From NCBI RefSeq assembly GCF_035084215.1, contig NW_027139453.1:8680001-8744000 (forward strand): DNA of 64,000 nucleotides. Direction: 5' to 3'. The notes below the pieces were generated by a model. It saw nothing but the letters and a program-made list of their open reading frames with translations. It did not search any database and was not told the DNA's origin. Below, one piece after another: positions 9,906 to 61,873 of this stretch. Each line of letters starts with the position of its first letter. Positions within the stretch are counted from its first letter, which is position 1. This DNA is from Heptranchias perlo (Eukaryota). A program made the translations under genes and the position numbers.

Positions 9906-11150
9906 ATTACATAGTAACGCAGGAACATAAGAACAGGAGTACGCCATTCAGCCCCTCGTGCCTGCTGCGACATTTGATAAGGTCATGGCTGATCTGCGTT
10001 CTAACTCCATATACCTGCCTTAGGCCCATATCCCTTAATACCTTTGGTTGCCAAAAAGCTATCTATCTCAGATTTAAATTTAGCAATTGAGCTAGTATCA
10101 ATTGCCGTTTGTGGAAGAGAGTTCCAAACTTCTACCACCTTTGAGTGAAGAAATGTTTTCTGATCTCACTCCTGAAATGCCTGGCTCTATTTTTTAGATT
10201 GTGCCCCCTAGAATCGCCAAACAGCGGAAATAGTTTATCTCCATCCGCCCAATCTGTTCCCCTTAATATTTTATAAACTTCGATCAGATCACCCCTGAAC
10301 CTTCTAAACTTTAGAGAATACAACCTCAATTTGTGTAATCTCTCCTCGTAACTTAATCCTTGAAGTCCGGGTATCATTCTAGTAAACCTACGCTGCACTC
10401 CCTCCAAGGACAACATGTCCTTCCGAAGGTTCAGTGCCCAGAACTGCTCACAGTACTCCAGGTGCGGTCTAACCAGGGTTTTGTATAGCTGCAGCATAAC
10501 TTCTGCCCCCTTGTATTCTAGTCCTCGAGATATAAAGGCCAGCATTCCATTAGCCTTATTGATTATTTTCAGCACCTGTTCATGAGACTTGAATGATCGA
10601 TGTACCTGAACCCCGAGGTCTCTTTGGACATCCACTGTTTTTAACTTTTTACCATTGGGAAAGTACCCTGTCCTATGCTTTTTTGATCCAAAGTGGATGA
10701 TCTCGCATTTGTCTACACGGAATTCCATTTGCCAAAGTTTGGCCCAATCAGCTAATCTATCAATATCGCTTTGTAATTTTATGTTTTCATCTACATGGCT
10801 TACAATGCCACCAATCTTTGTGTCATCGACAAACTTTGATATGTGACTTTCTATGCCTTCATCTAAGTCGTTAATAAATATTGTGAATAATTGAGGCCCC
10901 AAGACAGAACCCTGCGGACTCCACTCGTCACATCATGCCAATGTGAATACCGAGCCATTATCCCTACACTCTGTCGCTTTTCGCTCAACCAACTTCCTAC
11001 CCAAGTCCGGACTTTTCCCTCGATTCCTTGGGCTTCTATCTTAGCTAACAGTCTCTTATGTGGGACCTTATCAAATACCTTCTGGAAGTCCATCTAAATA
11101 ACATCCATTAACATTCTCCTCTCCACTACTTTAGTCACCTCTTCAAAAAT
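9906..11150 (-). mobile_element. 5'-truncated CR1 LINE (RT C-terminal half)
   Basis: ORFs 10863-11093 (DFQKVFDKVPH) and 10132-10902 (LFTIFINDL, SKFVDDTK); absent from the paralogous empty site near 26085. Confidence 0.88.
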
Positions 11151-11361
11151 CCAACAAAAATATATCAATCTCAGCCTTCAAAGCTCCAATTGACTCCCAG
11201 CATCCACGGGCTTTTGGGGGAGAGAGTTGCAGGTTTCCACTACCCATTGTGTAAAGAAGTCTTCCTGGCATCACCTGAATGGCCTTGGTTTAAGTTTAAA
11301 GTTCTGTCGCCTTGTGCTGGACTCCCAAACCAGAGGAAACGCTTTTATTCTATCAATCCAA

Positions 11362-12279
11362 TCCTCTTGTGGGATGTGGGAATTCAGGGCTCCTTCCTGT
11401 ATCCCTGATTCCTTCACCTGCGGGAAGTGTGTCCAGCTGCAGCTATTGTTTGACCGCTTGACGGCTCTGGAGCTGCGGATGGACTCACTTTGGAGCATCC
11501 GCGATGCTGAGAAAGTCGTGGATAGCACGTTCAGTGAGTTGGTCACACCGCAGATAAAAATTACTGAGGGAGATAGTGAATGGGTGACCAACAGACAGAG
11601 GAAGAGTAGGAAGGCAGTGCAGGGGTCCCCTGCGGTCATCTCCCTCCAAAACAGGTATACCGTTTTGGATACTGTTGGCGGAGATGGCTCACCAGGGGAA
11701 GGTGGCAGTGGCCAGGTTCATGGCACCGTGGCTGGCTCTGCTGCACAGGAGGGCAGGAAAAAGAGTGGCAGAGCTATAGTGATAGGGGACTCGATTGTAA
11801 GGGGAATAGACAGGCGTTTCTGCGGACGCAACCGAGACTCCAGGATGGTATGTTGCCTCCCTGGTGCAAGGGTCAAGGATGTCTCGGAGCGGCTGCAGGA
11901 CATTCTGGAGGGGGAGGGTGAACAGCCAGTTGTCGTGGTGCATATAGGCACCAACGACATAGGTAAAAAACAGGATGAGGTCCTACAAGCTGAATTTAGG
12001 GAGTTAGGAGTTAAACTAAAGAGTAGGACCTCAAAGGTAGTAATCTCAGGATTGCTACCAGTGCCACGGATTAGTCAGAGTAGGAATGACAGGATAGCTA
12101 AGATGAATACGTGGCTTGAGAGATGGTGCAAGAGGGAGGGATTCAAATTCCTGGCCCATTGGAACCGGTTCTGGGGGAGGTGGGACCAGTACAAATTGGA
12201 CGGTCTGCATCTGGGCAGGACTGGAACCAATGTCCTAGGGGGAGTGTTTGCTAGTGCTGTTGGGGAGGGTTTAAACTAA
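11362..12279 (+). CDS. CR1 ORF1p (zinc finger/leucine zipper + SGNH esterase), missing about its first 10 codons
   Basis: Motifs IGDS, PGA, HIGTND, DGLHL; near-identical to the ORF at 21050-21997; the ORF-track start at 11227 lies in flanking DNA. Confidence 0.85.
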   Translation, partial: SSCGMWEFRAPSCIPDSFTCGKCVQLQLLFDRLTALELRMDSLWSIRDAEKVVDSTFSELVTPQIKITEGDSEWVTNRQRKSRKAVQGSPAVISLQNRYTVLDTVGGDGSPGEGGSGQVHGTVAGSAAQEGRKKSGRAIVIGDSIVRGIDRRFCGRNRDSRMVCCLPGARVKDVSERLQDILEGEGEQPVVVVHIGTNDIGKKQDEVLQAEFRELGVKLKSRTSKVVISGLLPVPRISQSRNDRIAKMNTWLERWCKREGFKFLAHWNRFWGRWDQYKLDGLHLGRTGTNVLGGVFASAVGEGLN

Positions 12280-12280
12280 T

Positions 12281-15226
12281 GTGCAGGGGGATGGGAAACG
12301 ATGCAGGAAGTCAGTGGGAAATAAAGTGGTGACAGAAACAAAAGGCAGTAAGGGAGAGTGTACAGAACATGACCGGACAGATGGTCTGAGAAAGCAGGGC
12401 AAAGACCAAGGGAAGACTAGATTAAACTGCATTTATTTCAATGCAAGAAGTCTGATGGGCAAGGCAGATGAACTCAGGGCATGGATGGGTACATGGGACT
12501 GGGATGTTATAGCTATTACTGAAACATGGCTAAGGGAGGGGCAGGACTGGCAGCTCAATGTTCCAGGGTACAGATGCTATAGGAAAGATAGAGCAGGAGG
12601 TAAGAGAGGAGGGGGAGTTGCGTTCTTGATTAGGGAGAACATCACGGCAGTAGTGAGAGGGGATATATCCGAGGGTTCGCCCACTGAGTCCATATGGGTA
12701 GAACTGAAAAATAAGAAGGGAGAGATCACTTTGATAGGATTGTACTACAGACCCCCAAATAGTCAACGGGAAATTGAGGAGCAAATATGTAAGGGGATTA
12801 CAGACAGCTGCAAGAAAAATAGGGTGGTAATAGTAGGGGACTTTAACTTTCCCAACATTGACTGGGACAGCCATAGCATTAGGGGCTTGGATGGAGAGAA
12901 ATTTGTTGAGTGTATTCAGGAGGAATTTCTCATTCAGTATGTGGATGGCCCGACTAGAGAGGGGGCAAAACTTGACCTCCTCTTGGGAAATAAGGAAGGG
13001 CAGGTGACAGAAGTGTTAGTGAGGGATCACTTTGGGACCAGTGATCATAATTCCATTAGTTTTAAGATAGCTATGGAGAAGGATAGGTCTGGCCCAAAAG
13101 TTAAAATTCTAAATTGGGGAAAGGCCAATTTTGATGGTATTAGACAGGAACTTTCAGAAGTTGATTGGGAGAGTCTGTTGGCAGGCAAAGGGACGTCTGG
13201 TAAGTGGGAGGCTTTCAAAAGTGTGTTAACCAGGGTTCAGTGTAAGCACATTCCTTATAAAGTGAAGGGCAAGGCTGGTAGAAGTAGGGAACCTTGGATG
13301 ACTCGGGAGATTGAGGCACCAGTCAAAAATAAGAAGGAGGCATATGACATGCATAGGCAGCTGGGATCAAGTGGAACCCTTGAAGAGTATAGAGATTGCC
13401 GGAGTAGAGTTAAGAGAGAAATCAGGAGGGCAAAAGGGGGATATGAGATTGCTTTGGCAGATCAGGCAGAGGTGAATCCAAAGAGCTTCTACAAATACAT
13501 AAAGGGCAAAAGGGTAACTAGGGAGAGAGTAGGGCCTCTTAAGGATCAACAAGGTCATCTATGTGCGGAACCACAAGAGATGGGTGAGATCCTGAATGAA
13601 TATTTCACATCGGTATTTACGGTTGAGAAAGGCATGGATGTTAGGGAACTTGGGGAAATAAATAGTGATGTCTTGAGGAGTGTACATATTACAGAGAGGG
13701 AGGTGCTGGAAGTCTTAACGCGCATCAAGGTAGATAAATCTCCGGGACCTGATGAAATGTATCCCAGGACGTTATGGGAGGTTAGGGAGGAAATTGCGGG
13801 TCCCCTAGCAGAGATATTTGAATCATCCACCGCTACAGGTGAGGTGCCTGAAGATTGGAGGGTAGCAAATGTTGTGCCTTTGTTTAAGAAGGGCGGCAGG
13901 GAAAAGCCTGGGAACTACAGACCAGTGAGCCTGACATCTGTAGTGGGTAAGTTGTTAGAGGGTATTCTGAGGGACAGAATCTACAGGCATTTGGAGAGGC
14001 AGGGACTAATTAGGAACAGTCAGCATGGTTTTGTGAGAGGAAAATCATGTCTCACGAATTTGATTGAGTTTTTTGAAGGGGTAACCAAGAAGATAGATGA
14101 GGGCTGTGCAGTAGACGTGGTCTACATGGACTTCAGCAAAGCATTTGACAAGGTACCGCATGGTAGGTTGTTACATAAGGTTAAATCTCATGGGATCCAA
14201 GGTGAGGTAGCCAATTGGATACAAAATTGGCTTGACGACAGAAGACAGAGGGTGGTTGTCGAGGGTTGTTTTTCAAACTGGATGCCTGTGTCCAGCGGTG
14301 TGCCTCAGGGATCGGTGCTGGGTCCGCTGTTATTTGTTATTTATATTAATGATTTGGATGAGAATTTAGGAGGCATGGTTAGTAAGTTTGCAGATGACAC
14401 CAAGATTGGTGGCATTGTGGACAGTGAAGAAGGTTATCTAGGATTGCAACGGGATCTTGATAAATTGGGCCAGTGGGCCGATGAATGGCAGATGGAGTTT
14501 AATTTAGATAAATGTGAGGTGATGCATTTTGGTAGATCGAATCGGGCCAGGACCTACTCCGCTAATGGTAGGGCGTTGGGGAGAGTTATAGAACAAAGAG
14601 ATCTAGGAGTACAGATTCATAGCTCCTTGAAAGTGGAGTCACAGGTGGATAGGGTGGTGAAGAAGGCATTCAGCATGCTTGGTTTCATTGGTCAGAACAT
14701 TGAATGCAGGAGTTGGGATGTCTTGTTGAAGTTGTACAGGGCATTGGTGAGGCCACACTTGGAGTACTGTGTACAGTTCTGGTCACCCTATTATAGAAAG
14801 GATATTATTAAACCAGAAAGAGTGCAGAAAAGATTTACTCGGATGCTACCGGGACTTGATGGTTTGACTTATCGGGAGAGGTTAGACAGACTGGGACTTT
14901 ATTCCCTGGAGAGTAGGAGGTTAAGGGGTGATCTTATAGAAGTCTATAAAATAATGAGGGGCATAGATAAGGTCGATAGTCAAAATCTTTTCCCAAAGGT
15001 AGGGGAGTCTATAACGAGGGGGCACAGATTTAAGGTGAGAGGGGAGAGATACAAAAGGATCCAGAGGGGCAATTTTTTCACTCAAAGGGTGGTGAGTGTC
15101 TGGAACGAGCTGCCAGAGGCAGTAGTAGAGGCGGGTACAATTTTGTCTTTTAAAAAGCATTTGGACAGTTACATGGGGAAGATGGGTATCGAGGGATATG
15201 GGCCAAGTGCAGGCAATTGGGACTAG
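12281..15226 (+). CDS. CR1 ORF2p: apurinic-type endonuclease + reverse transcriptase (981 codons open)
   Basis: YFNARS, ITETW, GDFN, SDHN (APE); YRPVSLTS, QHGF, DFSKAFDKV, GVPQGSVLGP, FADD (RT). Confidence 0.95.
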   Translation: MQGDGKRCRKSVGNKVVTETKGSKGECTEHDRTDGLRKQGKDQGKTRLNCIYFNARSLMGKADELRAWMGTWDWDVIAITETWLREGQDWQLNVPGYRCYRKDRAGGKRGGGVAFLIRENITAVVRGDISEGSPTESIWVELKNKKGEITLIGLYYRPPNSQREIEEQICKGITDSCKKNRVVIVGDFNFPNIDWDSHSIRGLDGEKFVECIQEEFLIQYVDGPTREGAKLDLLLGNKEGQVTEVLVRDHFGTSDHNSISFKIAMEKDRSGPKVKILNWGKANFDGIRQELSEVDWESLLAGKGTSGKWEAFKSVLTRVQCKHIPYKVKGKAGRSREPWMTREIEAPVKNKKEAYDMHRQLGSSGTLEEYRDCRSRVKREIRRAKGGYEIALADQAEVNPKSFYKYIKGKRVTRERVGPLKDQQGHLCAEPQEMGEILNEYFTSVFTVEKGMDVRELGEINSDVLRSVHITEREVLEVLTRIKVDKSPGPDEMYPRTLWEVREEIAGPLAEIFESSTATGEVPEDWRVANVVPLFKKGGREKPGNYRPVSLTSVVGKLLEGILRDRIYRHLERQGLIRNSQHGFVRGKSCLTNLIEFFEGVTKKIDEGCAVDVVYMDFSKAFDKVPHGRLLHKVKSHGIQGEVANWIQNWLDDRRQRVVVEGCFSNWMPVSSGVPQGSVLGPLLFVIYINDLDENLGGMVSKFADDTKIGGIVDSEEGYLGLQRDLDKLGQWADEWQMEFNLDKCEVMHFGRSNRARTYSANGRALGRVIEQRDLGVQIHSSLKVESQVDRVVKKAFSMLGFIGQNIECRSWDVLLKLYRALVRPHLEYCVQFWSPYYRKDIIKPERVQKRFTRMLPGLDGLTYRERLDRLGLYSLESRRLRGDLIEVYKIMRGIDKVDSQNLFPKVGESITRGHRFKVRGERYKRIQRGNFFTQRVVSVWNELPEAVVEAGTILSFKKHLDSYMGKMGIEGYGPSAGNWD

Positions 15227-16299
15227 CTTAGTGGTATAAACTGGGCGACATGGACATGTTGGGCCGAAGGGCCTGTTTCCATGTTGTAACTTCTATGATT
15301 CTATGATTCTATGAAATAATTTAATCATCTTAAACACCTCAATTAGATCACACTATAATTTTCTATATTCCAGGGAATACAAGGAAAATTTATGCAACTT
15401 GTCCACGTAATTTAACCATCTGAACCCTGATATTATTGCTGTCAATTCTCCCTGCACCCTCTGCAAGGCCAATATATCTGTCTGAGGTGCGGTGCCCAGA
15501 ACTGAACGCAGTTCTCCAGATGGGGTTTCACCAGATCTCTCTATACAACTGGAGTATAACTTCCACCCCTTTGTATTCCAATCCCCTTGAGGAAAAAGCC
15601 AACATTCCATTAGACTTTTCAATTTTATATGTATCTGTCCACGAATTATGGTGATTTCTGTACTTGGATCGCCCAAATCTCTCTGCTCCTCCAAATTTTC
15701 GAGCGACACACCATTTAGAAAATAAACTCCGATTTAGCTTTCTTAGGTCCAAAATGAATGACCTCACACTTTGCCACTTTGAACTCAATCTGCCATAGGT
15801 TTGACACCTTACTTACCCTGTCTATGTCCCCTTTGCAAATTCCTTCTGTCATTTGCTATATTTATAGTCAATCGGAGAGGGAAGGCGTGGCATCTCCAAA
15901 CCTGCATCTCTTCCTAATCCTCCTCATGTTTTCCTGAATGATTTGAAAAGGACGCGTTGTTTCCTCAAAACACTCAACGCTGCTGTTCTCGTTCCTTTCC
16001 TTATTAGGAAAAAAGCTTCAAGTAAAAGAGGTGTGCAACTGGTTCTAATGATCGTATTTCACTGTAAGAATTTTTTTGAAACAATAATTCTTGATATTAA
16101 TATCTATTTCAGTAATCTTTCCTTCTTTCTTTCTTTCTGTTCATTCCTTTCCTTCTTTCTGTCTTCCTTGATTTCCGTCTTTCCTTCATTCTGTTTTTCT
16201 TTCTTTCTATGTTTCTTTCCTTGTTGTTTTCTCTCTTTCCCCCATTCCCCTTCGCCCATGAATGAACCTGCTTTCTGACCTCATCCTCTCCCCATCTCT

Positions 16300-17869: not shown

Positions 17870-18015
17870 TACATTTACTCAGAGAGATCGAGGAGTTCAA
17901 CAAAAAACACAAATTGGCAGGAAACATGCGTGTGACACAAAAGCGCGCGTCGATTTGTCATTTTGTTTCTTTTTTGGAGAGCAAAAATGTATTTGACAAG
18001 AAGATGAGACGAGTT

Positions 18016-21000
18016 CATTCAATCATAGAATCATAGAAGTTACAACATGGAAACAGGCCCTTCGGCCCAACATGTCCATGACGCCCAGTTTATACCACTA
18101 AGCTAGTCACAATTTCCTGCACTTGGCCCATATCCCTCCATACCCATCTTACCCATGTAACTGTCCAAATGCTTTTTAAAAGACAAAATGGTACCCGCCT
18201 CCACTACTGCCTCTGGCAGCTCGTTCCAGACACTCACCACGCTTTGAGTGAAAAAATGCCCCTCTGGACCCTTTTGTATCTCTCCCCTCTCACCTTTAAT
18301 CTATGCCCCCTCGTTAACGACTCCCCTACCTTTGGGAAAAGATTTTGACGATCTACCTTATCTATGCCCCTCATTATTTTATAGACTTCTATAAGATCAC
18401 CCCTTAACCTCCTACTCTCCAGGGAAAAAAGTCCCAGTGTTTCTAATCTCTCCCTATAAGTCAAACCATCAAGTCCCGGTAGCATCCTAGTAAATCTTTT
18501 CTGTACTCTTTCTAGTTTAATAATATCCTTTCTATAATAGGGTGACCAGAACTATACACAGTATTCCAAGTGTGGCCTCACCAATGCCCTGTACAACTTC
18601 AACAAGACATCCCAACTCCTGTATTCAAAGTTCTGACCAATGAAACCAAGCATGCCGAATGCCTTCTTCACCACCCTATCCACCTGTGACTCCACTTTCA
18701 AGGAGCTATGAACCTGTACTCCTAGATCTCTTTGTTCTATAACTCTCCCCAACGCCCTACCATTAACGGAGTAGGTCCTCGCCCGATTCGATCTACCAAA
18801 ATGCATCACATCACATTTATCTAAATTAAACTCCATCTGCCATTCATCGGCCCACTGGCCCAATTTATCAAGTTCCCGTTGCAATCCTAGATAACCTTCT
18901 TCACTGTCCACAATGCCACCAATCTTGGTGTCATCTGCAAACTTACGAACCATGTCTCCTAAATTATCATCCAAATCATTAATATAAAGAACAAATAACA
19001 GCGGACCCAGCACCGATCCCTGAGGCACACCGCTGGACACAGGCATCCAGTTTGAAAAACAACCCTCGACAACCACCCTCTGTCTTCTGTCGTCAAGTCA
19101 ATTTTGTATCCAATTGGCTACCTCACCTTGGATCCCATGAGATTTAACCTGATGTAACAACCTACCATGCGGTACCTTGTCAAAGGCTTTGCTGATGTCC
19201 ATGTGGACCGCGGCTACTGCACAGCCCTCATCTATCTTCTTGGTTACCCCTTCAAAAAACTCAATCAAATTCGTGAGACATGATTTTCCTCTCACAAAAC
19301 CATGCTGACTGTTCCTAATTAGTCCCTGCCTCTCCAAATGCCTGTAGATCCTATCCCTCAGAATACCCTCTAACAACTTACCCACTACAGATGTCAGGCT
19401 CACCGGTCTGTAGTTCCCAGGATTTTCCCTGCCGCCCTTCTTAAACAAAGGCACAACATTTGCTACCCTCCAATCTTCAGGCACCTCACCTGTAGCGGTG
19501 GATGATTCAAATATCTCTGCTTGGGGACCCGCAATTTCCTCCCTAACCTCCCATAACGTCCTGGGATACATTTCATCAGGTCCCGGAAATTTATCTACCT
19601 TGATGCGCGTTAAGACTTCCAGCACCTCCCTCTCTGTAATATGTACACTCCTCAAGACATCACTATTTATTTCCCCAAGTTCACTAACATCCATGCCTTT
19701 CTAAACCGTAAATACCGATGTGAAATATTCATTCAGGATCTCACCCATCTCTTGTGGTTCCGCACATAGATGACCTTGTTGATCCTTAAGAGGTCCTACT
19801 CTCTCCCTAGTTACTCTTTTGCCCTTTATGTATTTGTAGAAGCTCTTTGGATTCTCCTTTGCCTTATCTGCCAAAGCAATCTCATGTCCCCTTTTTGCCC
19901 TCCTGATTTCTCTCTTAACTCCACTCCGGCAATCTCTATACTCTTCAAGGGATCCACTTGACCCCAGCTGCCTATGCATGTCATATGCCTCCTTCTTCTT
20001 TTTGACTCGGGCCTCAATCTCCCGAGTCATCCAAGGTTCCCTACTTCTACCAGCCTTGCCCTTCACTTTATAAGGAATGTGCTTACACTGAACCCTGGTT
20101 AACACACTTTTGAAAGCCTCCCACTTACCAGACGTCCCTTTGCCTGCCAACAGACTCTCCCAATCAACTTCTGAAAGTTCCTGTCCAATACCATCAAAAT
20201 AGACCTTTCCCCAATTTAGAATTTTAACTTTTGGGCCAGACCTATCCTTCTCCATAGCTATCTTAAAACTAATGGAATTATGATCACTGGTCCCACAGTG
20301 ATCCCTCACTAACACTTCTGTCACCTGCCCTTCCTTATTTCCCAAGAGGAGGTCAAGTTTTGCCACCTCTCTAGTCAGGCCATCCACATACTGAATGAGA
20401 AATTCCTCCTGAATACACTCAACAAATTTCTCTCCATCCAAGCCCCTAATGCTATCGCTGTCCCAGTCATCGTTGGGAAAGTTAAAGTCCCCTAATATTA
20501 CCACACTATTTTTCTTGCAGCTGTCTGTAATCTCCTTACATATTTGTTCCTCAATTTCCCGTTGACTATTTGGGAGTCTGTAGTACAATCCTATCAAAGT
20601 GATCTCTCCCTTCTTATTTTGCAGTTCTACCCATATAGACTCAGTGGGCGAACCCTCGGATATATCCCATCTCGCGACTGCCGTGATGTTCTCACTAATC
20701 AAGAACGCAACTCCCCCTCCTCTCTTACATCCTGCTCTATCTTTCATATAGCATCTGTACCTTGGAACATTGAGCTGCCAGTCCTGCCCCTCCCTTAGCC
20801 ATGTTTCAGTAATAGCTATAACATCCCAGTCCCATGTACCCATCCATGCCCTGAGTTCATCTGCCTTGCCCATCAGACTCCTTGCATTGAAATAAATGCA
20901 GTTTAATCTAGACTTCCCTTGGTCTTTGCCCTGCTTTCTCAGACCATTTGTCCGGTCATGTTTTGTACACTCTCCCTTACTGCCTTTTGTTTCTGTCACC

Positions 21001-22080
21001 ACTTTATTTCCCACTGACTTCCTGCATCGGTTCCCATTCCCCTGCCATATTAGTTTAAACCCTCCCCAACAGCCCTAGCAAACACTCCCCCTCGGACATT
21101 GGTTCCAGTCCTGCCCAGATGCAGACCGTCCAATTTGTACTGGTCCCACCTCCCCCAGAACCGCTTCCAATGTCCCAGGAATTTGAATCCCTCCCTCTTG
21201 CACCATCTCCCAAGCCACGTATTCATCCTAGCTATACTGTCATTCCTACTCTGACTAGCCCGTGGCACTGGTAGCAATCCTGAGATTACTACCCTTGACG
21301 TCCTACTCTTTAGTTTAACTCCTAACTCCCTAAATTCAGCTTGTAGGACCTCATCCTGCTTATTACCTATATCGTTGGTGCCTATATGCACCACGACAAC
21401 TGGCTGTTCACCCTCCCCCTCCAGAATGTCCTGCAGCCGCTCCGAGACATCCTTGACCCTTGCACCAGCGAGGCAACATTCCATCCTGGAGTCTCGGTTG
21501 CGTCCGCAGAAACGCTTGTCTATTCCCCTTACATTCGAGTCCCCTATCACTATAGCTCTGCCACTCTTTTTCCTGCCCTCCTGTGCAGCAGAGCCAGCCA
21601 CGGTGCCATGAACCTGGCCGCTGCCACCTTCCACTGGTGAGCCATCTCCCCCAACAGTATCCAAAACGGTATACCTGTTTTGGAGGGAGATGACCGCAGG
21701 GGACCCCTGCACTGCCTTCCTACTCTTCCTCTGTCTGTTGGTCACCCATTCACTATCTCCCCCAGTAATTTTTATCTGCGGTTTGACCAACTCACTGAAC
21801 GTGCTGTCCACGACTTTCTCAGCATCGCGGATGCTCCAAAGTGAGTCCATCCGCAGCTCCAGAGCCGTCAAGCGGTCAAACAATAGCTGCAGCTGGACAC
21901 ACTTCCCGCAGGTGAAGGAATCAGGGATACAGGTAGGATCCCTGAATTCCCACATCCCACAAGAGGAACATGACACGGCTGTGGGATCTCCTGCCATGAC
22001 TTAACCCTTAAGTTAGCTTAACAATAACTACAATGTCAAGAGAAAAAAAAGGAAAGAAAATCTACTTACCACTCCCTTTA
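18016..22080 (-). mobile_element. Near full-length CR1 LINE (intact ORF1, ORF2 with several stops)
   Basis: ORF1 21050-21997; ORF2 pieces 19701-21014, 19098-19694, 18552-19076, 18234-18485; tail at 18020-18040; putative AGTT target duplication 18012-18015 / 22081-22084 relative to empty-site GAGACGAGTTAGAATG. Confidence 0.95.
21050..21997 (-). CDS. CR1 ORF1p (CxxC..CxxC zinc finger, coiled coil, SGNH esterase)
   Basis: ATG start, 315 aa, CSSC..CGKC, IGDS, HIGTND, DGLHL. Confidence 0.9.
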   Translation of the reverse strand: MAGDPTAVSCSSCGMWEFRDPTCIPDSFTCGKCVQLQLLFDRLTALELRMDSLWSIRDAEKVVDSTFSELVKPQIKITGGDSEWVTNRQRKSRKAVQGSPAVISLQNRYTVLDTVGGDGSPVEGGSGQVHGTVAGSAAQEGRKKSGRAIVIGDSNVRGIDKRFCGRNRDSRMECCLAGARVKDVSERLQDILEGEGEQPVVVVHIGTNDIGNKQDEVLQAEFRELGVKLKSRTSRVVISGLLPVPRASQSRNDSIARMNTWLGRWCKREGFKFLGHWKRFWGRWDQYKLDGLHLGRTGTNVRGGVFARAVGEGLN

Positions 22081-24176
22081 AGTTAGAATGAAGTGAGAGA
22101 TTAGATATAGATGCATTGGAGAAGGTGCGATAAAGATTTACGGGCATGATACGAGAACTGAGAGGTTATAACTATCAGGAAAGCTTGAACAGGCTGGGAC
22201 TCTTTTCTTTTGAGAAGCGAAGCCTGTGCGCTGACCTGACAGAGCTGATTAAAATTATGAAAGGGACTGATAGGGTAGACGTAAGTAACATGTTTACACT
22301 TGTGAGGGAGAAAAGAAGTAGGGATCAAAATTATAATATAGACATTAATTAATCCAATCGGAATTTAGGAGAAATTGTTTTACCCAAAGAAACTTTAGCA
22401 TGTGGATCTCACCACTGGAAGGAGTAGTTGAGGCCAACACCATAGATGTATTTAATGGGAAGGTAGGAAAATACATGAGAAAGAAAGGAATCGACGGATA
22501 TGCTTCTTGGATGAGATGAAATAATGTGGGAGTAGTCTCGTGTGCGGTTTAAACACAAGCACAATCCTGTCGGGCCGAATGAACCTTTTCTGTGCTTTTC
22601 ATTCCATTTAATTAGAGTGCTAAGCCGGAATACAAGCAGGGTTGGAATGCTCTTTGAATTTTGGAAATGATTCCTGGGTGAGGGAGGTAAATGTGGGATT
22701 AGTGCAGGAATGAATGTGGGAACGCGTTAGGAACTCATGGTCTTTTCTACACTATGTCGCTGTTCCTGTTGGCGGGATGGGCGAAAAGAGAAAGGGAGGG
22801 AAGAAGAAATACAGATTCAAAGAAAGTAAAAAGACTTTTGTATTTTCATCAATTTACTGTGTTATCTTTCACCGAGAGGACAGCAGAGGGCGTTCTAGGA
22901 CCGTGAAACAGAGCAGCGCCTTGAGCATAATTGAATTGGAAAAGGAGGAGGTCATTCAGCCATTCGTGCTTGTCACATAGTCAGAGGCAGAGGACATTCG
23001 GCCCGTCGAGCTTGTCAAATAGAAATAGTTGGAGGAAATTCAATTCCCTCGACTCTGTTCCGCAATTCAATTAGTTCATGGCTGATCTGTACCTCAACTG
23101 CATTTACCCGCCTTTTCTCCATATCGCTCGACTCCGTCACCAAAAAAAAATCTATCAATCTCAGTCTTGGAAGCTCCAATTGTCTCCCAGCGTCCACAGT
23201 TTTTTGGAGGAGAGAGTTGCAGATTTCCACTACCCGTTGTGTGAAAAAGTCTTACTGACTTCACCTCTGAACCGACTTGATCGAAGTTTAAGGTGACCCC
23301 TCGTTCTGGACTCCCCAGCCAGCAAATGCTTTCTTTCGAACTACCCTATCAAATCCTTTAATCATTTTAAACAACTCAATTAAACCAATCCTTAATCTTC
23401 TATATTCCATGGAATACAAGCCAAGGGTATGCAAACTGTCCTCATAATTTAACCCTCGAAGCCCCAGTACTATTCTTTTCAATGAGCTGTGCACCCTTTC
23501 AAAGGCCAATATACCCTTCTGAGCTCAGGTGCGCGGAACTGAACGCGACACTCCAGATGGAGACTTCCCAAAGCTGTCTGAAACTTCAGTATAACTACCA
23601 TCCCTTTGTATTCCAGTCCCCTTGAGATGAAGGCCAAAATTCTATTGGCCTTTTCACTCATTTTATGTATCTGTCCATGAGTTTTAGTGAATTCTCTTCC
23701 TGGACCCCTCAATCTCGCAGCTCCTCCACAGTTCATAACTTCTGATGGAGGGGTGGGGCTTTCATTCAGGGAGGGAGGGGCGGGACTGTCAAATAGTGAG
23801 GGAGGGCGGGGCGTTTCTAAACCTGCATCAATTCCTGACATTGTTGTGCAATCTGTATATCGCTATCTCGTTATCAAACGGGCTTGGTTTAGCCCAGAGT
23901 TGTCCAATAGCCGCTCGCCACATGTGGCAAATTAGGAATCCAGATGTGGTTAATTGCATAACTGATTGTAAATACAAAATATACCATTTCGTTATTAGCA
24001 ACCACATTGATTCTAATTGGTTCAACTGGGAAAGGAGGCGTGTCCAACCGTGCAACACGACCTTATTCTCTTCATGTTTTCCTGAATGATTTGAAAAGGG
24101 CGGGTTGGCCCATCACAAGACTCACCGCTGCTGTTCTAGCTCCTTTGCTTATTAAGAGTGAAGCTTAAAGTAAAGG

Positions 24177-24745
24177 ATGAATCTGTTACTGGGCCTGATC
24201 ATCTTGATTCACAGTAAATTATTTTTTTCAAACCATTAATCTTGTTAACAACATTTATTAACGTTTTCGATCGTTTTTTTTTCTTGCCCTCATTCTTTGC
24301 TTCTTTCTCCCATTCGCTCATTCTCTCCTTTACTCTTTCTATATTTCTCTGTTTCTCCATTTCTTTCTCATTTTCTCTCTTTCTCCCTTTCCCCATTTTC
24401 CCGAATGTCCCTATTAAATGATATCCTCCTCTCCCTGTCTCTTTCCCAGACGTGAAATCGAAGACGATCTACCAGACACCAGTCGCTGTCTCCAAATTCC
24501 CTGGGGAGGGAGTGGAACTGAAGTGCACGGTGGAGGGCACCAGGAGCGCTTACATGTATTGGTACAGACAATACCCGAGGAAGGAGCCAGAGTTTATGTT
24601 TTACTCGACGGGTACCAATCTTGTGCGTCCAGAGGAGAAGGTGGACGGTTTTACCGCCAAGCGACCGAATGATCACCAGTTAAACCTGAAGGCGTCCAGC
24701 CTGCGGGCGAATCACTCGGCCGTGTATTACTGCGCCTGGAGTCTG
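24177..24745 (+). CDS. TRBV: TCR V segment V7 (TRBV30-like), apparently functional; leader 24177-24213, V exon 24450-24745
   Basis: Leader MNLLLGLIILIH, GT-AG intron, open exon VKSKTIYQTP..CTVEGTRSAYMYWYRQ..YYCAWSL. Confidence 0.92.
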
Positions 24746-24784
24746 CACAGTGGCTCAGAGAGATCGAAGAGTTTAACAAAAACC
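24746..24784 (+). other. 23-bp spacer RSS of V7
   Basis: CACAGTG + 23 nt + ACAAAAACC. Confidence 0.95.
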
Positions 24785-27017
24785 CCAAAGTGGGCAGGAA
24801 ACACGCGTGTGACACAAAACCGCGCATCGCCTCGACCTGTTGTTTTTTTTGCATATCAAACGTGTTTTTATCAGGAAGAGGAGACGAGTTACAATGAAGT
24901 GAGAGATTAGATATGGAGGCACTGGGGAAGATGCAACAAAGATTTTAAGGGTTATACGAGAACTGAGAAGTTATAACTATCAGGAAAGTTTGAACAGGCT
25001 GGGGCTCTTTTCTTGAGAGAAGCGAAGGCTGAGAGATGACCTGATAGAGTTCATTAAAATTTTGAAAGGGACTGATAGGTTAGACATAGGGAACATGTTT
25101 ACCCTTGTGGAGGAGACCAGAAGTAGGGACTTTAAATATTACATAGTCATTCATTAAACCTAATGGAATTCAGCAGAAACTTCTTCACCTACAGAGTGGT
25201 TAGAATGTCGAGCTCGACTCCACATGGAGTAGTTGAGCCGAATAGTGTAGATGCATTTAAGGGGAAGGTAGATAAATACATGAGGAAGAAAGGAGTAGAC
25301 GGATATGCTGATAGGGTGAGATGAAATAATGTGGGAGGATGTCCCTGCGATGCATAAACACAAGCATATACCAGTTGGGCCGAATGGCCTATTTCTATGC
25401 TGTTCATTGTATGTAATTAGAGTGATGAGCACGTACACAAACAGTGTGGGAATAATCTGTGAATTTGGGGAACTGACTCCTGGGTGAGGGAGGTAGATGT
25501 GGGATCAATGCAGGAATAAATGGGGGAACGCGATTGGACCTCATGGTCTTTTCTACACTTTGTCGCTGTTCCTGTTGGCGGGTAAGTAAAGCGAGCGCCC
25601 GATGTCACATCGAGGCCTTCGGGTCTGGTGCAGTATTAGAGATCCGACAAATCATGTGTTAAATACAGGCGGGATGGGCGAAAAGAGAAAGGGAGAAAGT
25701 AATAAAGAAAGGAAGAAAGAAGGAAAGAAAGAATGTGTAATGACTGTTGGTTTTTATCCACTGACATTCTGTTTCCTTTCTGCACGAGGACAGTAGTGGG
25801 CGCTCGAGGATCATGAAACACTTCAGTGCCCTGAAGATGGTGGTGCAGGAAAAGAAGGAGGCCATTCAGCTCCTCAAGCCTGTTGCATAGGAACAAGCGG
25901 AGATAATTCAGACCCTCGACCCTTGTACATAGGTACAGAACGAGTCCATTCAGCCCCTCAATCGTCTTAAATATAAACAGGTGGATGACATTCATTCCAC
26001 AGAGTCTGTTCCGACATTCAATTAGTTCATGGATGATCTGTAGCTCAACTCCATTTAACGCCTTGGTTCCATATTCCTCGATCCCCTGACTCAACAAAAA
26101 TCTATCAATCTCGGTCTACAAAGCTGCAATTGACCCCCAGCATCCACAGGCTTTTTGGGGGAGAGAGTTGCAGATTTCCACTAACCTTTGTGTGAAGAAG
26201 TCTTATTGGCATCACACCAGAACGGCCTTGGTTCAAGTTTAAGGTTCTGTCCCCTTGTGCTGGACTCCCAAACCAGAGGAAATGCTTTTACTTTCTATCT
26301 ACCCAATCAAATCCTTTAATCATCTTAAACACCTCAATTAGATCACCCCTTACTTTTCTATATTCCAGGGAATACAAGCCAAATTTATGCAACTTATCCT
26401 CATAATTTAACCCTATAAACCCTGGTATTATTGCAGTCAATTCGCCCTGGGCTCTCTGCAAGGTCAATATATCTGTCTGAGGTACGGAGCCGAGAACTGA
26501 ACGCGGTTCTCCAGATGGGGTCGAAACATATCTCTCTATAAAACTGGAGCATAACTTCCACCCCTTTGTATTCCAATCCTCTTGAGGAAAAGGCCAACAT
26601 TCCATTCGACTTTTCACTTATTTTATGTATCTTTCCACAGTGATTTCTGTACATGAATCCCCCAAATCTCTCTGCTCCTCCAAATTTGCGAGCTACACAC
26701 CATTTAGTAAATACTCTCCGATTTAGCTTTCTTAAGCCCAAAATGAATGACCTCGCACTTTGCCACTTTGAACTAAATCTGCCACAGTTTTGACAACTCA
26801 CTTTACCTGTCTATGTGCACTTTGCTAATTCCTTCTGCCATTTGCTCTATTTATTGTCAATCGTAGAGGGAAGGCGGGGCGTGTCCAAACCTGCTTCACT
26901 TCCTTATCCTCCTCATGTTTTCCTGAATGATTTCAAAAGAGCAGGTTGGCTCCCCACAAGACTCAACGCTGCTGTTCTCGTTCCTTTCCTTATTAAGAGA
27001 AAAGCTTCAAATAAAAT

Positions 27018-30270: not shown

Positions 30271-31239
30271 GGAATGAAGAAAGAAAGAAGGATGGAAAAA
30301 AAGATTGAAATAAAAATTGAAAGAAGGAAAGTAAAAAGATAGGTGAGTTTTCATCCACTGATATTGTGTTTTAATTCTCCACCCAGACAGCAGAGGGCGC
30401 TCTAGGACCATAACGTGCAGAAGTGTCCTGAACATTGTTTAATAATAACAGGAGGTGACCATTCAGCTCCTCGAGCCAGTTACATCGGAACAGGAGAAGG
30501 CCCCCCGATCCTGTTATACAAAAACAGGAGTAGGACATTCAGCCACTCGAGCGAGCTCCACCGTTCAATTGGATCAAGGCTGATCTGTGCCTCATCTTTA
30601 TCTATCCGCCTTGGGCCTGTAACTATTAAGTAACAAAAATCTACCGATCTCAGTCTTGAAAGCTGCAATTGACCCCCAGCTTCCACAGCCTTTTGGGGGA
30701 GAGAGTTCCAGATTTCCACTGCCCTTTCTGAGAAGAAGTGCCTCCTGACTTCACAATTAAACGGTCCCGTTCAAATTTTAGGAGTTTTTTTTACATATTC
30801 ATGGCTTGTGGGCGTCGCTGGTAATGCTAGCATTTATTGCCCATTCCTAATTGACCTTGAGAAGGCGGTGGTGAGCCGCCTTCTTGAACAGCTGCAGGTT
30901 ACGCCCCCTTGTTTAGGACTCCCCCACCAGAGGAATTAGTTGCTCTCCAGCTAACGTAGCGAAACATTGTCGCATCTTAAACACCTCAATCAGATTATCC
31001 CTCAATCTTCTACGCTCAAGGTAATACCAGGCTAGCCTATGCAACCTGTCCTCATAATTGAACACTTTTAGCCCCGGTGTTATTCAGGTGAATCTGCACT
31101 GCATCACCTCCAAAGCCAAAATATCCTTCCTGACGTGCGGTGCCCAGAACTGAATGCAGTTCTCCAGATGGTCTCTGAGCAGAGCTCTGTCTAACTGTAA
31201 GTTCACTTCCAAAGCTTTGTATTCCAGCCTTCCTGAGAT

Positions 31240-34200
31240 AAATGTAAGGAATCTTACAACACCAGGTTATAGTCCAACAAATTTATTTTAAAATCACAAG
31301 CTTTCGGAGATTATCTCCTTCGTCAGATGAATGAATGAAAAGGTTCTCAAATCGCATATCTTATACGATGTTGGGACAGCATCACACCAATCAAAAGGTG
31401 TCGTTGTTATTCAAACAGGCCAGTCACGGAGAACAGCACGTCCCAGTACACTCGATATACATTGTGTCTTTTATACAGGCAGGCAGAAAGAAACTCAAAA
31501 TGGCAGAGAGAGAGAGAGAGAGAATTTTAAAAAACATATAAATTTTTCCCCTTTTTGCTGGTGGGGTTACGTGTAGCGTGACATGAACCCAAGATCCCGG
31601 TTGAGGCCGTCCTCATGGGTGCGGAACTTGGCTATCAACTTCTGCTCGACGATTTTGCGTTGTCGTGTGTCTCGAAGGCCGCCTTGGAGAACGCTTACCC
31701 GAAGATCGGTGGCTGAATGTCCTTGACTGCTAAAGTGTTCCCCGACTGGGAGGGAACCCTCCTGTTTGGCGATTGTTGCGCGGTGTCCGTTCATCCGTTG
31801 TCGCAGCGTCTGCATGGTCTCGCCAATGTACCATGCTCCGGGGCATCCTTTCCTGCAACGTATGAGGTAAACAACGTTGGCCGAGTCACAGGAGTATGAA
31901 CCGTGTACCTGGTGGGTGGTGTCCTCTCATGTGATGGTGGTATCTGTGTCGATGATCTGGCATGTCTTGCAGAGGTTACCATGGCAGGGTTGTGTGGTGT
32001 CGTGGACACTGTTCTCCTGAAAGCTGGGTAATTTGCTGCGAACGATGGTCTGTTTGAGGTTGGGTGGCTGTTTAAAGTCGAGTAGTGGAGGTGTGGGGAT
32101 GGCCTTAGCGAGGTGTTCGTCGTCATCGATGACATGTTGAAGGCTGCGGAGAACATGTTGTAGTTTCTCCGCTCCAGGGAAGTACTGGACGACGAAGGGT
32201 ACTCTGTTGGTTGCGTTCCGTGTTTGTCTTCTGAGGAGGTCTATGCGATTCTTCGCTGTGGCCCGTCGGAACTGTCGATCGACAAGTCGAGCGTCATATC
32301 CCGTTCTTACGAGGGCGTCTTTCAGCGTCTGTAGGTGTCCATCACGTTCCTCCTCGTCTGAGCAGACCCTGTGTATTCGTAGGGCCTGTCCATAGGGGAT
32401 GGCCTCTTTGCCGTGGTTGGGGTGGAAGTTGGAAAAGTGGAGCATCGTGAGGTTGTCCGTGGGCTTGCGGTAGAGTGAGGTGCTGAGGTGCCCGTCTTTG
32501 ATGGAGATTTGTGTGTCCAAGAAAGAAACCGATTCTGAGGAGTAATCCATGGTGAGTTTGATGGTGGGATGGAACTTGTTGATGTTATCGTGTAGTCTCT
32601 TCAGTGATTCTTCGCCGTGGGTCCATAGGAAGAAAATGTCGTCGATGTATCTGGTGTATAGTGTTGGTTGGAGGTCCTGTGCAGTGAAGAAGTCCTGCTC
32701 GAACTTGTGCATGAAAATGTTGGCGTATTGGGGTGCGAATTTGGTCCCCATGGCTGTTCCGTGTGTTTGGGTAAAGAACTGGTTATTGAAGGTGAAGACA
32801 TTGTGATCCAGGATGAAGCGGATGATTTGTAGGATGGCATCTGGAGATTGGCTGTTGTTGGTGTTGAGGACTGAGGCTGTTGCAGCGATGCCGTCATCGT
32901 GGGGGATACTGGTGTAGAGTGCCGAGACGTCCATCGTGGTGAGAAGTGTTCCTGGTTCAACTGGACCGTGGGTGCTGAGTTTTTGTAGGAAGTCTGTAGT
33001 GTCGCGACAGAAGCTGGGGGTTCCCTGTACGATGGGTTTCAGGATGCCCTCGACGTATCCAGAGATGTTCTCACACAGGGTTCCGTTGCCTGATACGATA
33101 GGACGTCCGGGTGTGTTGGCTTTGTGTATCTTTGGGAGGCAGTAGAAGTCTCCCATGCGGGGAGTACGTGGAATGAGAGTGCGTAGGATGCTTTGAAGGT
33201 CTGGATCGAAGGTCTTGATCAGTTTGTTGAGCTGGTGGGTGTGTTCTTTGTTCGGATCTGCGGGTAACCGTCTGTAGTGTTCCTGGTTGTCCAGTTGTCG
33301 GTATGCTTCTTTGCAATAGTCCGTTCTGTTCTGTATGACAATGGCTCCTCCTTTGTCCGCTGGTTTGATGACGAGGTTTCGGTTGGTCTTGAGAGCGTTG
33401 ATGGCGTTGCGTTGTGCTCGGGTGACATTCTGGATTGTCTTCTGAGTGCGCCTGATGAATCTGGCATTGACGCATTTCCTGACAGCTTGGGCATACATGT
33501 CAAGCTGAGGGTAGCGACCCTCCGGAGGAGTCCAGTTTGACTCTTTCCTCTTCGGTTGCTGTACCGTGGATCCCTCTGTCTGCTGTTCTGGATCATTGAT
33601 TGTCTCATTGGGTTCACTGTTGAAATCTTGGGGTTTGTGGTAAAATTCCCGGAGCCTCATTCTCCTAATGAATTCCTCTGTGTCCGCCGCGAGACCGATG
33701 CGGTCCATTTTGGTGGTGGGGCAGAAATTGAGCCCTCGGCTGAGAACCTCGATTTCGTCTGGTTGAAGGGTGTGGTCGGACAAATTGATGATAGACTTCC
33801 CTGTGGTTGTAACCGTGGTACCGGTGGAGGCTTGGTTGATGCTGGTGGTGATGCCGAGTTTCTCAAGCTTCCTGCTCTTGGTTTTCATGTAGGCAGTGTA
33901 GTTCCGTTGCCTCGTCTGTTTGGCGGTATATCGTAGCTGGTCTGCTGTGTCCTGAGTACAGGTTGAGAGTATGGACTCTATCTTGGTTTCGAGGTTGTGG
34001 AGTCTGCTGTAGAGTTGGTGTATGAGATGGTTGCAGAGTGTGCGAGAGGTACGGCGGCAGAGTCTCTCAGCGTAATCCGAGTTGTATGTTGACTTGAGTG
34101 GGTTCTTGATCTGTAGTCCTTTCGGGATCTTGTCTGCTTTCTTGCAGCTCTGTAAAAACTTGATGTCTGTGTCGATATGTGCAATCTTCATGGAGATCAT

Positions 34201-34552
34201 TAACACTGTGAGCCGGCAGTTTGTGGTGTCGATAGTAGCCATGATGTGGAGATGCCGGTGATGGACTGGGGTGGACAAATGTAAGGAATTTTACAACACC
34301 AGGTTATAGTCCAACAAATTTATTTTAAAATCACAAGCTTTTGGAGATTATCTCCTTCGTCAGATGAATGAATGAAAAGGTTCTCAAATCGCATATCTTA
34401 TACGATGTTGGGACAGCATCACACCAATCAAAAGGTGTCGTTGTTATTCAAACAGGCCAGTCACGGAGAACAGCACGTCCCAGTACACTCGATATACATT
34501 GTGTCTTTTACACAGGCAGGCAGAAAGAAACTCAAAATGGCAGAGAGAGAGA
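31240..34552 (-). mobile_element. Penelope-like retroelement (probably Neptune-type), full unit plus upstream partial repeat (pseudo-LTR)
   Basis: ORF 31567-34278 broken by one CGA>TGA at 31927; RT motifs YCLPKIHK, GRPIVS, DVSALYTSIP, GTAMG, RYIDD; Cys linker CHGNLCKTC; GIY-YIG; 31240-31510 repeated at 34278-34552. Confidence 0.92.
31294..31330 (-). ncRNA. Minimal hammerhead ribozyme motif in Penelope 3' repeat
   Basis: Minus strand UCAU-CUGACGA-A-GGAGA(UAA)UCUCC-GAAA-GCUU-GUGA. Confidence 0.65.
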
Positions 34553-36482
34553 GATACACAAAGCCAACACACCCGGACGTCCTATCGTATCAGGCAACGG
34601 AACCCTGTGTGAGAACCTCTCTGGATACGTCGAGGGCATCCTGAAACCCATCGTACAGGGAACCCCCAGCTTCTGTCGCGACACTACAGACTTCCTACAA
34701 AAACTCAGCACCCACGGACCAGTTGAACCAGGAACACTTCTCACCACGATGGACGTCTCGGCACTCTACACCAGTATCCCCCACGATGACGGCATCGCTG
34801 CAACAGCCTCAGTACTCAACACCAACAACAGCCAATCTCCAGATGCCATCCTACAACTCATCCGCTTCATCCTGGATCACAATATCTTCACCTTCAATAA
34901 CCAGTTCTTTACCCAAACACACGGAACAGCCATGGGGACCAAATTCGCACCCCAATACGCCAACATTTTCATGCACAAGTTCGAGCAGGACTTCTTCACT
35001 GCACAGGACCTCCAACCAACGCTATACACCAGATACATCGACGACATTTTTTTCCTATGGACCCACGGTGAGGAATCACTAAAGAGACTACACGATAACA
35101 TCAACAAGTTCCATCCCACCATCAAGCTCACCATGGACTACTCCTCAGAATCAGTTTATTTCTTGGACACACGAATCTCCATCAAAGACGGGCACCTCAG
35201 CACCTCACTCTACCGCAAGCCCACGGACAACCTCACGATGCTCCACTTTTCCAGCTTCGACCCTAACCACGTCAAAGAGGCCATCCCCTATGGACAGGCC
35301 CTGCGAATACACAGGGTCTGCTCAGACGAGGAGGAACGCGATGGACACCTGCAGATGCTGAAAGACGCCCTGGTAAGAACGGGATACGACGCTCGACTCA
35401 TCGATCGACAGTTCCGACGGGCCACAGCGAAAAATCGCATCGACCTCCTCAGGAGAGTAACACGGGACGCAACCAACAGAGTACCCTTTGTCGTCCAGTA
35501 CTTCCCCAGAGCGGAGAAACTACGCCATGTTCGCCGCAGCCTTCAACATGTCATCAATGAGGACAAACACCTCGCTATGGCCATCCCCACACCTCCACTA
35601 CTCGCCTTTAAACAGCCACCCAACCTCAAACAAACCATCTTTCGCAGCAAATTACCCAGCTTTCAGGAGAACAGCGTACACGGCACCACACAACCCTGCC
35701 ACGGTAACCGTTGCAAGACATGCCAGATCATCGACACAGATACCACCATCACACGAGAGGACACCACCCACCAGGTGCATGGTTCATACTCCTGTGACTC
35801 GGCCAACGTTGTCTACCTCATACGTTGCAGGAAATGATGCCCCAGAGCATGGTACATTGGCGAGACCATGCAGACGCTGCGACAATGGATGAACGGACAC
35901 CGCGCAACAATCGCCAAACAGGAGGGTTCCCTCCCAGTCGGGGAACACTTCAGCAGTCAAGGACATTCATCCACCGACCTTCGGGTAAGCATAATCCAAG
36001 GCGGCCTTCGAGACACACGACAACGCAAAATCGTCGAGCAGAATTTGATAGCCAAGTTCCGCACCCATGAGGACGGCCTCAACCGGGATCTTGGGTTCAT
36101 GTCATGCTACACGCAACACCAGCGAAAAAATGTTATCCGTTTTTAATATAAATGGTCAGTTGCTGTCTTTTCTATGTTTCTACCTCTCTATCTCTATGTT
36201 TTTTTCTATATTCGGAGACCTTGTTGGTAACACCTGCCTGTCTGCACACTGATTGCCTTGGCAACGGGCAGTTGAAAAGACAGTCTGTAATCACCACGCA
36301 TTGTTCTATGATTTATAAATGCGATTTCATTTCGAGGATGTCATTTCCACAAAATTCACCTGAGGAAGGAGGAAGCCTCCGAAAGCTTGTGAAATTAAAA
36401 TAAAATTGCTGGAGTATAACTTGGTATTGTGAAATTGTTTACAATTGTCAACCCCAGTCCATCACCGGCATCTCCACATCAT
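34551..36482 (+). mobile_element. 5'-truncated Penelope-like element in opposite orientation
   Basis: IHKANTPGRPIVS..RYIDD..VVYLIRCRK then premature TGA at 35835; 3' UTR differs from the neighbouring copy; ends with the first ~40 nt of a next unit. Confidence 0.9.
36355..36393 (+). ncRNA. Minimal hammerhead ribozyme motif
   Basis: UUCAC-CUGAGGA-A-GGAGG(AAG)CCUCC-GAAA-GCUU-GUGAA; perfect 5-bp helices I and II. Confidence 0.7.
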
Positions 36483-58698: not shown

Positions 58699-58749
58699 TT
58701 GTAAACAATTTTACAACACCAAGTTATAGTCCAGCAATTTTATTTTAAA

Positions 58750-58788
58750 TTCACAAGCTTTCGGAGATTTTCTCCTTCCTCAGGCAAA
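58750..58788 (-). ncRNA. Minimal hammerhead motif (unit 2)
   Basis: Identical to 55662-55700. Confidence 0.65.
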
Positions 58789-59038
58789 TGTTTCAAGATC
58801 TCCTTGAAGCCTACGCATTTATACATATTGAACAATAAAACATGGTGTTTACAGACTGCCCCTGCAACTGCCCGTTGCCAAGGCAATCACCGTGTTCAGA
58901 CAGAGAGGTGTTACCTGCAGAACCTCCGAATACACATTCAACAAAAAAACAAACAGGGAAAAAAACAGAGAAAAAAAAAACACAGAGAGAGGCAGAAACA
59001 TCCGGAAGGCAGAGAGAGCCAGCAAATGACCCATTATA

Positions 59039-61783: not shown

Positions 61784-61834
61784 TTGTAAACAATTTTACA
61801 ACACCAAGTTATAGTCCAGCAATTTTATTTTAAA

Positions 61835-61873
61835 TTCACAAGCTTTCGGAGATTTTCTCCTTCCTCAGGCAAA
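61835..61873 (-). ncRNA. Minimal hammerhead motif (unit 3)
   Basis: Identical to 55662-55700. Confidence 0.65.

Follow-up and report, generated by a model that had tools for sequence, protein, structure and literature searches.

The ORF1 of a CR1-type LINE in the genome of Heptranchias perlo ends in the slippery heptamer U_UUA_AAC directly followed by a stop codon, and a programmed -1 frameshift at this site probably joins ORF1 to ORF2. As judged from comparative sequence analysis, the resulting fusion protein would be the main source of the endonuclease and the reverse transcriptase (RT) of the element. Most ribosomes would halt at the UAA codon and release the ORF1 protein (ORF1p). On a minority of ribosomes, tRNA-Leu and tRNA-Asn would re-pair on UUU and AAA, respectively (tandem -1 slippage), and reading would resume at CUA. 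The predicted junction peptide is G-L-N/L-I-W-Q-G, and the fusion product would comprise ~1,300 residues (about 315 + 983). A gag-pol-like ORF1-ORF2 fusion had been proposed for a single copy of the element from its sequence; this proposal gains comparative support from the reading frame and the heptamer, whereas a stimulator was not found and an AUG overlaps the stop codon in the largest subfamily. U_UUA_AAC is described as one of the most shift-prone heptamers for mammalian ribosomes in the part of a frameshifting review that was available (PMC5009743). How LINEs translate ORF2 from a two-gene RNA is presented as an open question in the sections covered of this review and of a second paper (PMC3894237), and CR1 is the most abundant chicken repeat according to an excerpt of the chicken genome report (PMC11835228). 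If the frameshift takes place, it would fix the ORF1p:ORF2p ratio and tether the enzyme to ORF1p, the annotated ORF2 start in CR1 libraries would change, and the junction would represent a natural -1 site with a stimulator unlike the usual pseudoknot.

The element and its ORF1-ORF2 junction

The window, i.e. the whole stretch of 64,000 nt analyzed here (contig NW_027139453.1), harbors two copies of the element, denoted A and B, the latter being the copy for which the frameshift had been proposed (Table 1). The copies show 96.7% identity across 3971 nt. ORF2 of copy A is open over 983 codons. Copy B itself is unable to make ORF2, because stops interrupt this frame at three positions (19703, 19100, and 18554), as does a 1-nt gap near 18257. 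The 3' ends of both copies consist of TTCTATGA repeats, that is, short tandem repeats, and no LTR is present. ORF1 shows an N-terminal Cys motif and a C-terminal SGNH/GDSL esterase (Pfam PF13472, E 3.9e-11 and 2.8e-13 for the ORFs of the window), and its product terminates in G-L-N. The Pfam matches of ORF2 are PF03372, PF14529, and PF00078, and its endonuclease resembles human L1 endonuclease structures (E about 3e-4). The element is taken for a CR1-type LINE on account of its domain layout and its short-repeat tail. The nearest named homologs of ORF1 come from sawshark and rays. Vertebrate CR1-clade LINEs of the ZfL2-1 type likewise combine an esterase ORF1, an ORF2 with APE endonuclease and RT, and a 3' short-repeat tail, as far as the available portion of the report goes (PMC3905857).

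Table 1. Coordinates of the LINE copies and of the junction elements within the window.
Feature	Position	Strand	Remarks
Copy B, CR1-type LINE (flagged)	17998..21997	-	from ORF1 start through 3' tail; ORF2 broken
Copy A, same family as copy B	11361..15330	+	alignment to copy B begins ~10 codons inside ORF1
ORF1, copy B	21050..21997	-	315 aa; ATG at 21997, stop TAA
ORF2 body, copy B	18092..20888	-	APE endonuclease, then RT; interrupted
Slippery heptamer U_UUA_AAC, ORF1 phase	21053..21059	-	TTTAAAC read as T TTA AAC
ORF1 stop TAA	21050..21052	-	directly 3' of the heptamer; its TA completes the first -1 codon CTA
-1-frame linker, heptamer to endonuclease	20889..21053	-	55 codons, without stop and without Met
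G-rich block G5-A-W-G2-3, candidate cis-element	21033..21042	-	begins 10 nt after the heptamer

On the minus strand, ORF1 of copy B ends with GGT TTA AAC TAA (21062-21050), which confirms that the heptamer and the stop (21059-21050) are read as T TTA AAC TAA in the X_XXY_YYZ phase. The ORF2 frame extends over 19701..21074 (-), and its codons, read from 21053 and hence one base back, are CTA ATA TGG CAG, in agreement with the -1 frame originally assigned to it. The Asn of the endonuclease motif N-A-R-S is residue 56 of this frame (20888), presumably the counterpart of the active-site Asn of the L1 endonuclease, and Met first appears in this frame at residue 61 (20873). The Pfam endonuclease match begins at residue 55. 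As the alignment with the L1 endonuclease runs from ORF2 residue 59 onward, against L1 residue 19, a start at Met61 would drop the first strand. TTTAAAC occurs 14 times in the window, and TTTAAACTA is found only at the two ORF1 ends. Copy A harbors the same heptamer (12270-12276) followed by TAATG (12277-12281), and one base is missing at about 12284; the heptamer and the shortening had been noted previously.

Copy A is inserted within a ~400-nt repeat (flanks 11150-11360 and 15310-15500), which is found uninterrupted at 26092-26495, 23143-23532, 2797-3171, 5629-6004, and 30632-31148. Near-identical single long ORFs with an RT domain, the longest of 918 aa, are located at 55954-63861 (-), 31927-34290 (-), and 34368-35837 (+); they form a tandem array with a repeat unit of about 3085 bp and, in addition, a divergent pair. 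No endonuclease domain was matched in them at E up to 0.5, and they are possibly Penelope-like, which is a guess. An immunoglobulin V-set exon (PF07686, E 4.6e-14) is present at 24422-24910 (+), and the window may lie within an antigen-receptor locus.

Conservation of the heptamer

A DNA search with the junction yielded 1676 candidates in the 3.25-Gb genome. The spacing of copy B was found in 36 of the 38 loci with a measurable junction, the exceptions being copy A (-1 nt) and one other locus (-2 nt). A query taken 400 nt downstream, which does not contain the junction, returned 18 loci; eight of these hold the junction, six of them with the spacing of copy B. The 1-nt deletion is private to copy A. 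In the clustered family of the window, TTTAAACTAA is present in 34/34 copies. A flank-only pattern that leaves the heptamer free and fixes the spacing, and hence carries no information on the frame, gave 7,436 genomic matches, the junction being present at least 7,400 times in the genome. Among the first 100 flank-anchored junctions listed, 97 carry the exact TTTAAAC and none uses another Leu codon; the synonymous variants that the original prediction had named as evidence against a frameshift are rare. Similarly, TTTAAACTA is present in 123 of 130 own-genome junctions that were placed by an ORF1 profile without its last 8 residues, a count that excludes 30 loci retrieved through a heptamer pattern and in which L001-L030 stem from a junction-containing query.

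Further lineages were obtained by genome searches with six diverged ORF1 proteins, one pattern, and two linkers, and by one metagenome scan (39 loci). In six metagenome contigs the ORF1 end is intact and belongs to a distant type, and a seventh carries a frame-broken ORF1 with the same heptamer; the remaining contigs are cut short, broken, or encode more distant proteins without the heptamer. We take the six distant metagenome lineages to be bird-type. For a comparison of 12 lineages, one real copy each was hand-picked from the clusters, six from this genome and six from metagenome contigs. The C-terminal identity of ORF1 amounts to 37-87% among the lineages of this genome and to about 30% between these and the bird-type group. 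In 12/12 lineages the last ORF1 codons are nnT TTA AAC, followed by TAA or TAG, and the conservation of TTTAAAC that had been suggested as a check is found down to about 30% ORF1 identity. Unlike the shark element, teleost esterase ORF1s (P0081-P0092) end in unrelated residues, and the more distant metagenome esterase ORFs L150 and L153 lack the heptamer.

The T at the third position of the codon before TTA is kept under Gly, Ala, Ser, and Cys. Three consecutive synonymous sites are fixed at the heptamer, compared with a single codon kept in only 1/20 other columns with an invariant residue (0/8 in ORF1 and 1/12 in the endonuclease, the latter columns drawn from 9 sequences), and therefore the constraint acts on nucleotides. 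In the compared ORFs, TTA accounts for 45/328 Leu codons and AAC for 56/147 Asn codons. On this comparative evidence the heptamer is conserved beyond the need of the protein, which indicates selection at the nucleotide level. It could be supposed that selection maintains no more than the protein end Leu-Asn-stop, its codons being common by descent or chance. Residues L299 and N300 are indeed invariant in 40 aligned ORF1 proteins, a set chosen for an intact C-terminus, and the lineages are related, so that the 12 are not independent. Nevertheless, this explanation is scarcely credible and appears largely refuted, as synonymous sites are saturated elsewhere and the T is retained under four different amino acids.

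Reading frame of the linker and position of AUG codons

The usual distances between the ORF1 stop and the endonuclease Asn are 110, 134, 149, 152, 164, 173, 176, 197, 206, 275, and 374 nt (152 and 173 nt in one copy each), and all 11 lengths equal 2 mod 3, i.e. they belong to the -1 class. ORF2 is found at -1 in 32/34, 36/42, 12/12, and 15/17 copies of four lineages, the first of which is the family of the window, where the -1 position had been named as a test and is now borne out. The linker of this family is open in 32/32 -1 copies. The representative L014 contains 3 and 4 stops in the two frames other than -1, and in the 374-nt linker (7/7 copies) no stop interrupts the -1 frame, whereas the other two frames contain 6-8 and 10-12 stops. 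Although the linker sequences differ widely between the lineages, the -1 frame is open and the other frames contain several stops. Judging from these sequences, translation enters ORF2 near the junction; the preserved linker frame speaks for entry at this place, not for slipping as the route. The 374-nt linker (L231, L236-L238, L243, L246, and L253) resembles an in-frame chimera, to which the 275-nt lineage would have contributed its linker and, behind it, the 149-nt lineage the start of its ORF2.

Frame linkage is looser in older lineages. In one of them, with unstable G-runs, only 14/33 copies are at -1. A second, related older lineage (L278-L307; also L094, L107, and L208) keeps the heptamer and shows G-runs of 7 to 32 nt. 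Its 30 copies comprise 17 of the +1 class, 12 of the -1 class, and one in frame 0, and these classes are intermingled in a tree of poor resolution; the search had started from a +1 copy, whose clade is made up of four hits. In the three translated copies the +1 frame is closed by stops at the junction, and an in-frame ATG is located ~40 nt past the stop in 28/30 copies. The spread of frames in the older lineages could result from one-base contraction of the G-run from -1 sources, from assembly error, or from release by the new ATG.

A Met before the endonuclease Asn was found in 0/12, 4/36, and 3/15 copies of three lineages and is absent from all 16 -1 copies without TAATG in the window's family; four own-genome lineages and the non-TAATG half of this family are mostly without a Met ahead of the endonuclease. 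The most numerous subfamily carries TAATG. This sequence follows the heptamer in 17/34 copies of the window's family, 16 of which are -1 copies with the ATG in the ORF2 frame, and in 59 of the first 100 flank-anchored junctions listed an ATG of this frame overlaps the stop (counted by hand; one of them is TGATG). The earlier statement that no in-frame ATG precedes the endonuclease motif consequently applies to copy B, whose Met61 lies behind Asn56, and does not extend to the TAATG half of the family. In 3/6 bird-type lineages an in-frame ATG is located 2 nt past the stop. Conservation of an AUG at the ORF1 stop was not observed across the six young own-genome clusters tallied: it occurs in one of them, in 16/32 copies.

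Start codons at these positions raise the question of termination-reinitiation, by which ribosomes would stop at the ORF1 end and restart in the -1 frame at UAAUG, at a nearby AUG, or at a non-AUG codon. ORF2 would then be made as a separate protein, and the role of the heptamer would be that of a pausing site or of a context for termination. Because an ATG overlaps or adjoins the stop, reinitiation is possible in the TAATG and bird-type lineages, and the loss of strict frame linkage in the older lineage with a downstream ATG fits this mechanism. Precedents are known from SART1 (PMC3894237 and PMC3708506, passages available) and from the AUG-independent initiation of L1 ORF2 (PMC5009743, part covered). 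The largest CR1 subfamily found here resembles SART1 in having a UAAUG whose AUG belongs to the ORF2 frame. According to the passages available, SART1 relies on a downstream structure (PMC3894237, PMC3708506), whereas none was found at the CR1 junction, where the best z-score was -1.9 and the folds were not common to the lineages; in addition, the AUG is not conserved here and the upstream heptamer is. The two bases following the ORF1 stop are free (TG, TA, AG, AA, CT, TT, AT, GT, and AC were found), but the seven bases before it are fixed, even in all 18 TG copies counted. Moreover, abundant young lineages lack an AUG ahead of the endonuclease, and an in-phase X_XXY_YYZ heptamer is not in itself needed for reinitiation. 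Taken as the explanation of the junction, termination-reinitiation is the main alternative to frameshifting, but it is unlikely in view of these observations. Frameshifting and reinitiation may both operate in the AUG-bearing (TAATG) subfamilies.

Candidate stimulators and relation to known systems

Downstream of the heptamer, G is found at stop+10..+14 and at +17 and +18 in 14/14 lineage representatives, three of which had been retrieved by means of a pattern that included the G-run. In copy B the block carries one G>A change, at 21038. It reads Gly-Asp/Glu-Gly, and the use of GGG codons suggests a role at the RNA level. For the programmed frameshift it may be speculated that the stimulator is this G-rich block 10 nt downstream, either protein-bound or folded in an unpredicted way, and not a conserved local hairpin. 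G-quadruplexes are reported to stimulate shifting in synthetic constructs (PMC5009743, in the part covered); the G block alone contains too few G-runs for a three-tier quadruplex.

The conserved G block would also be compatible with another nucleotide signal. Together with the heptamer it could form a weak UUUAAA poly(A) site giving an ORF1-only mRNA, a TATA-like internal promoter, or a splice signal, with ORF2 being made otherwise. TTTAAA resembles a weak poly(A) hexamer as well as a variant of the TATA box, and G-rich elements are known to occur downstream of poly(A) sites. Such a signal leaves unexplained why the codon phase and the final C are invariable and why the linker is AUG-free and open in -1 at 11 lengths. 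A splice acceptor requires AG, while most own-genome lineages have TAA, and an internal promoter would require a downstream AUG. All three variants are considered highly improbable.

Several candidate structures were rejected. A conserved downstream fold was not found among nested folds in 11 lineages (z-scores of -1.9 to +1.8). Folds of the 50 and 80 nt after the stop were no better than those of shuffled sequences and not common to the 11 lineages, which disfavors a local hairpin stimulator; folding of the downstream 80 nt, recommended in the original prediction, lent it no support. A long-range pairing between the G block and a C-rich part of ORF1 ~630 nt upstream ranked first or second in 5/11 lineages and was rejected as unsupported on controls: 1-71% of shuffled G blocks paired equally well, as often did other G-rich 19-mers, one lineage breaks a pair without compensation, and two pair poorly. 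An Rfam search gave no match to the junction better than E 2. A reading of UGGGA as a TURBS-like element was discarded as well, since the pentamer is missing in some lineages and is placed on the side of the stop opposite to that expected from the known TURBS layout.

Contigs from four runs, whose RNA origin is a guess, were aligned to 20800-21300. Loose ends of diverged relatives cluster near 21029 and 21082, the linker of one contig is interrupted by two 12-nt gaps, and no joint is common to different runs. Alignments of this kind cannot reveal splicing or expression. No relative was found in the genome-contig collection searched. A search for longer ORF1 homologs returned two ray gene models with host-gene names, which are uninformative on a real fusion.

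A stop codon directly after the shift site is known from several retroviruses. The 1a/1b junction of the infectious bronchitis coronavirus shows the identical heptamer in X_XXY_YYZ phase and a polymerase ORF at -1 (PMC5009743, part covered). Unlike viral U_UUA_AAC sites, the LINE junction has no predicted pseudoknot or stable hairpin 5-9 nt downstream (as far as nested folds are concerned), and a G-rich block is present instead. The element encodes no protease recognized by Pfam, and therefore a fusion protein would stay joined or need a host protease. Among APE-type non-LTR elements, TRE5-A and TRE3-A of Dictyostelium require a -1 frameshift for ORF2 according to the section of a review that was available (PMC5911963). 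They belong to another clade and host, their ORF1 is unrelated, and the shift site is absent from the account given in that section.

If the proposal is extended to the CR1 LINEs of vertebrates, from cartilaginous fish to the bird-type group, the RT would be made as a Gag-Pol-like fusion via U_UUA_AAC-stop, stimulated by a G motif without a pseudoknot and so far undescribed; in this broad form the proposal is tentative and somewhat less probable than its opposite. No description of a CR1 frameshift was found in the literature searched. The original chicken and turtle CR1 papers, the work of Kapitonov and Jurka (2003), notes in Repbase and Dfam, and supplements are outside this coverage and may already propose a frameshift. 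A frameshift is mentioned nowhere in the available portion of the ZfL2-1 report (PMC3905857), CR1 is not mentioned in the part covered of the frameshifting review (PMC5009743), and the chicken genome report, in the excerpt at hand, presents CR1 simply as two ORFs (PMC11835228).

Some database proteins, namely P0006, P0034, P0035, and P0121, are mislabelled CR1 ORF1 sequences. One of the four, 62% identical, is filed as Pseudomonas aeruginosa, probably owing to contamination, and the others are gene models from rays, two of which bear the names of host genes.
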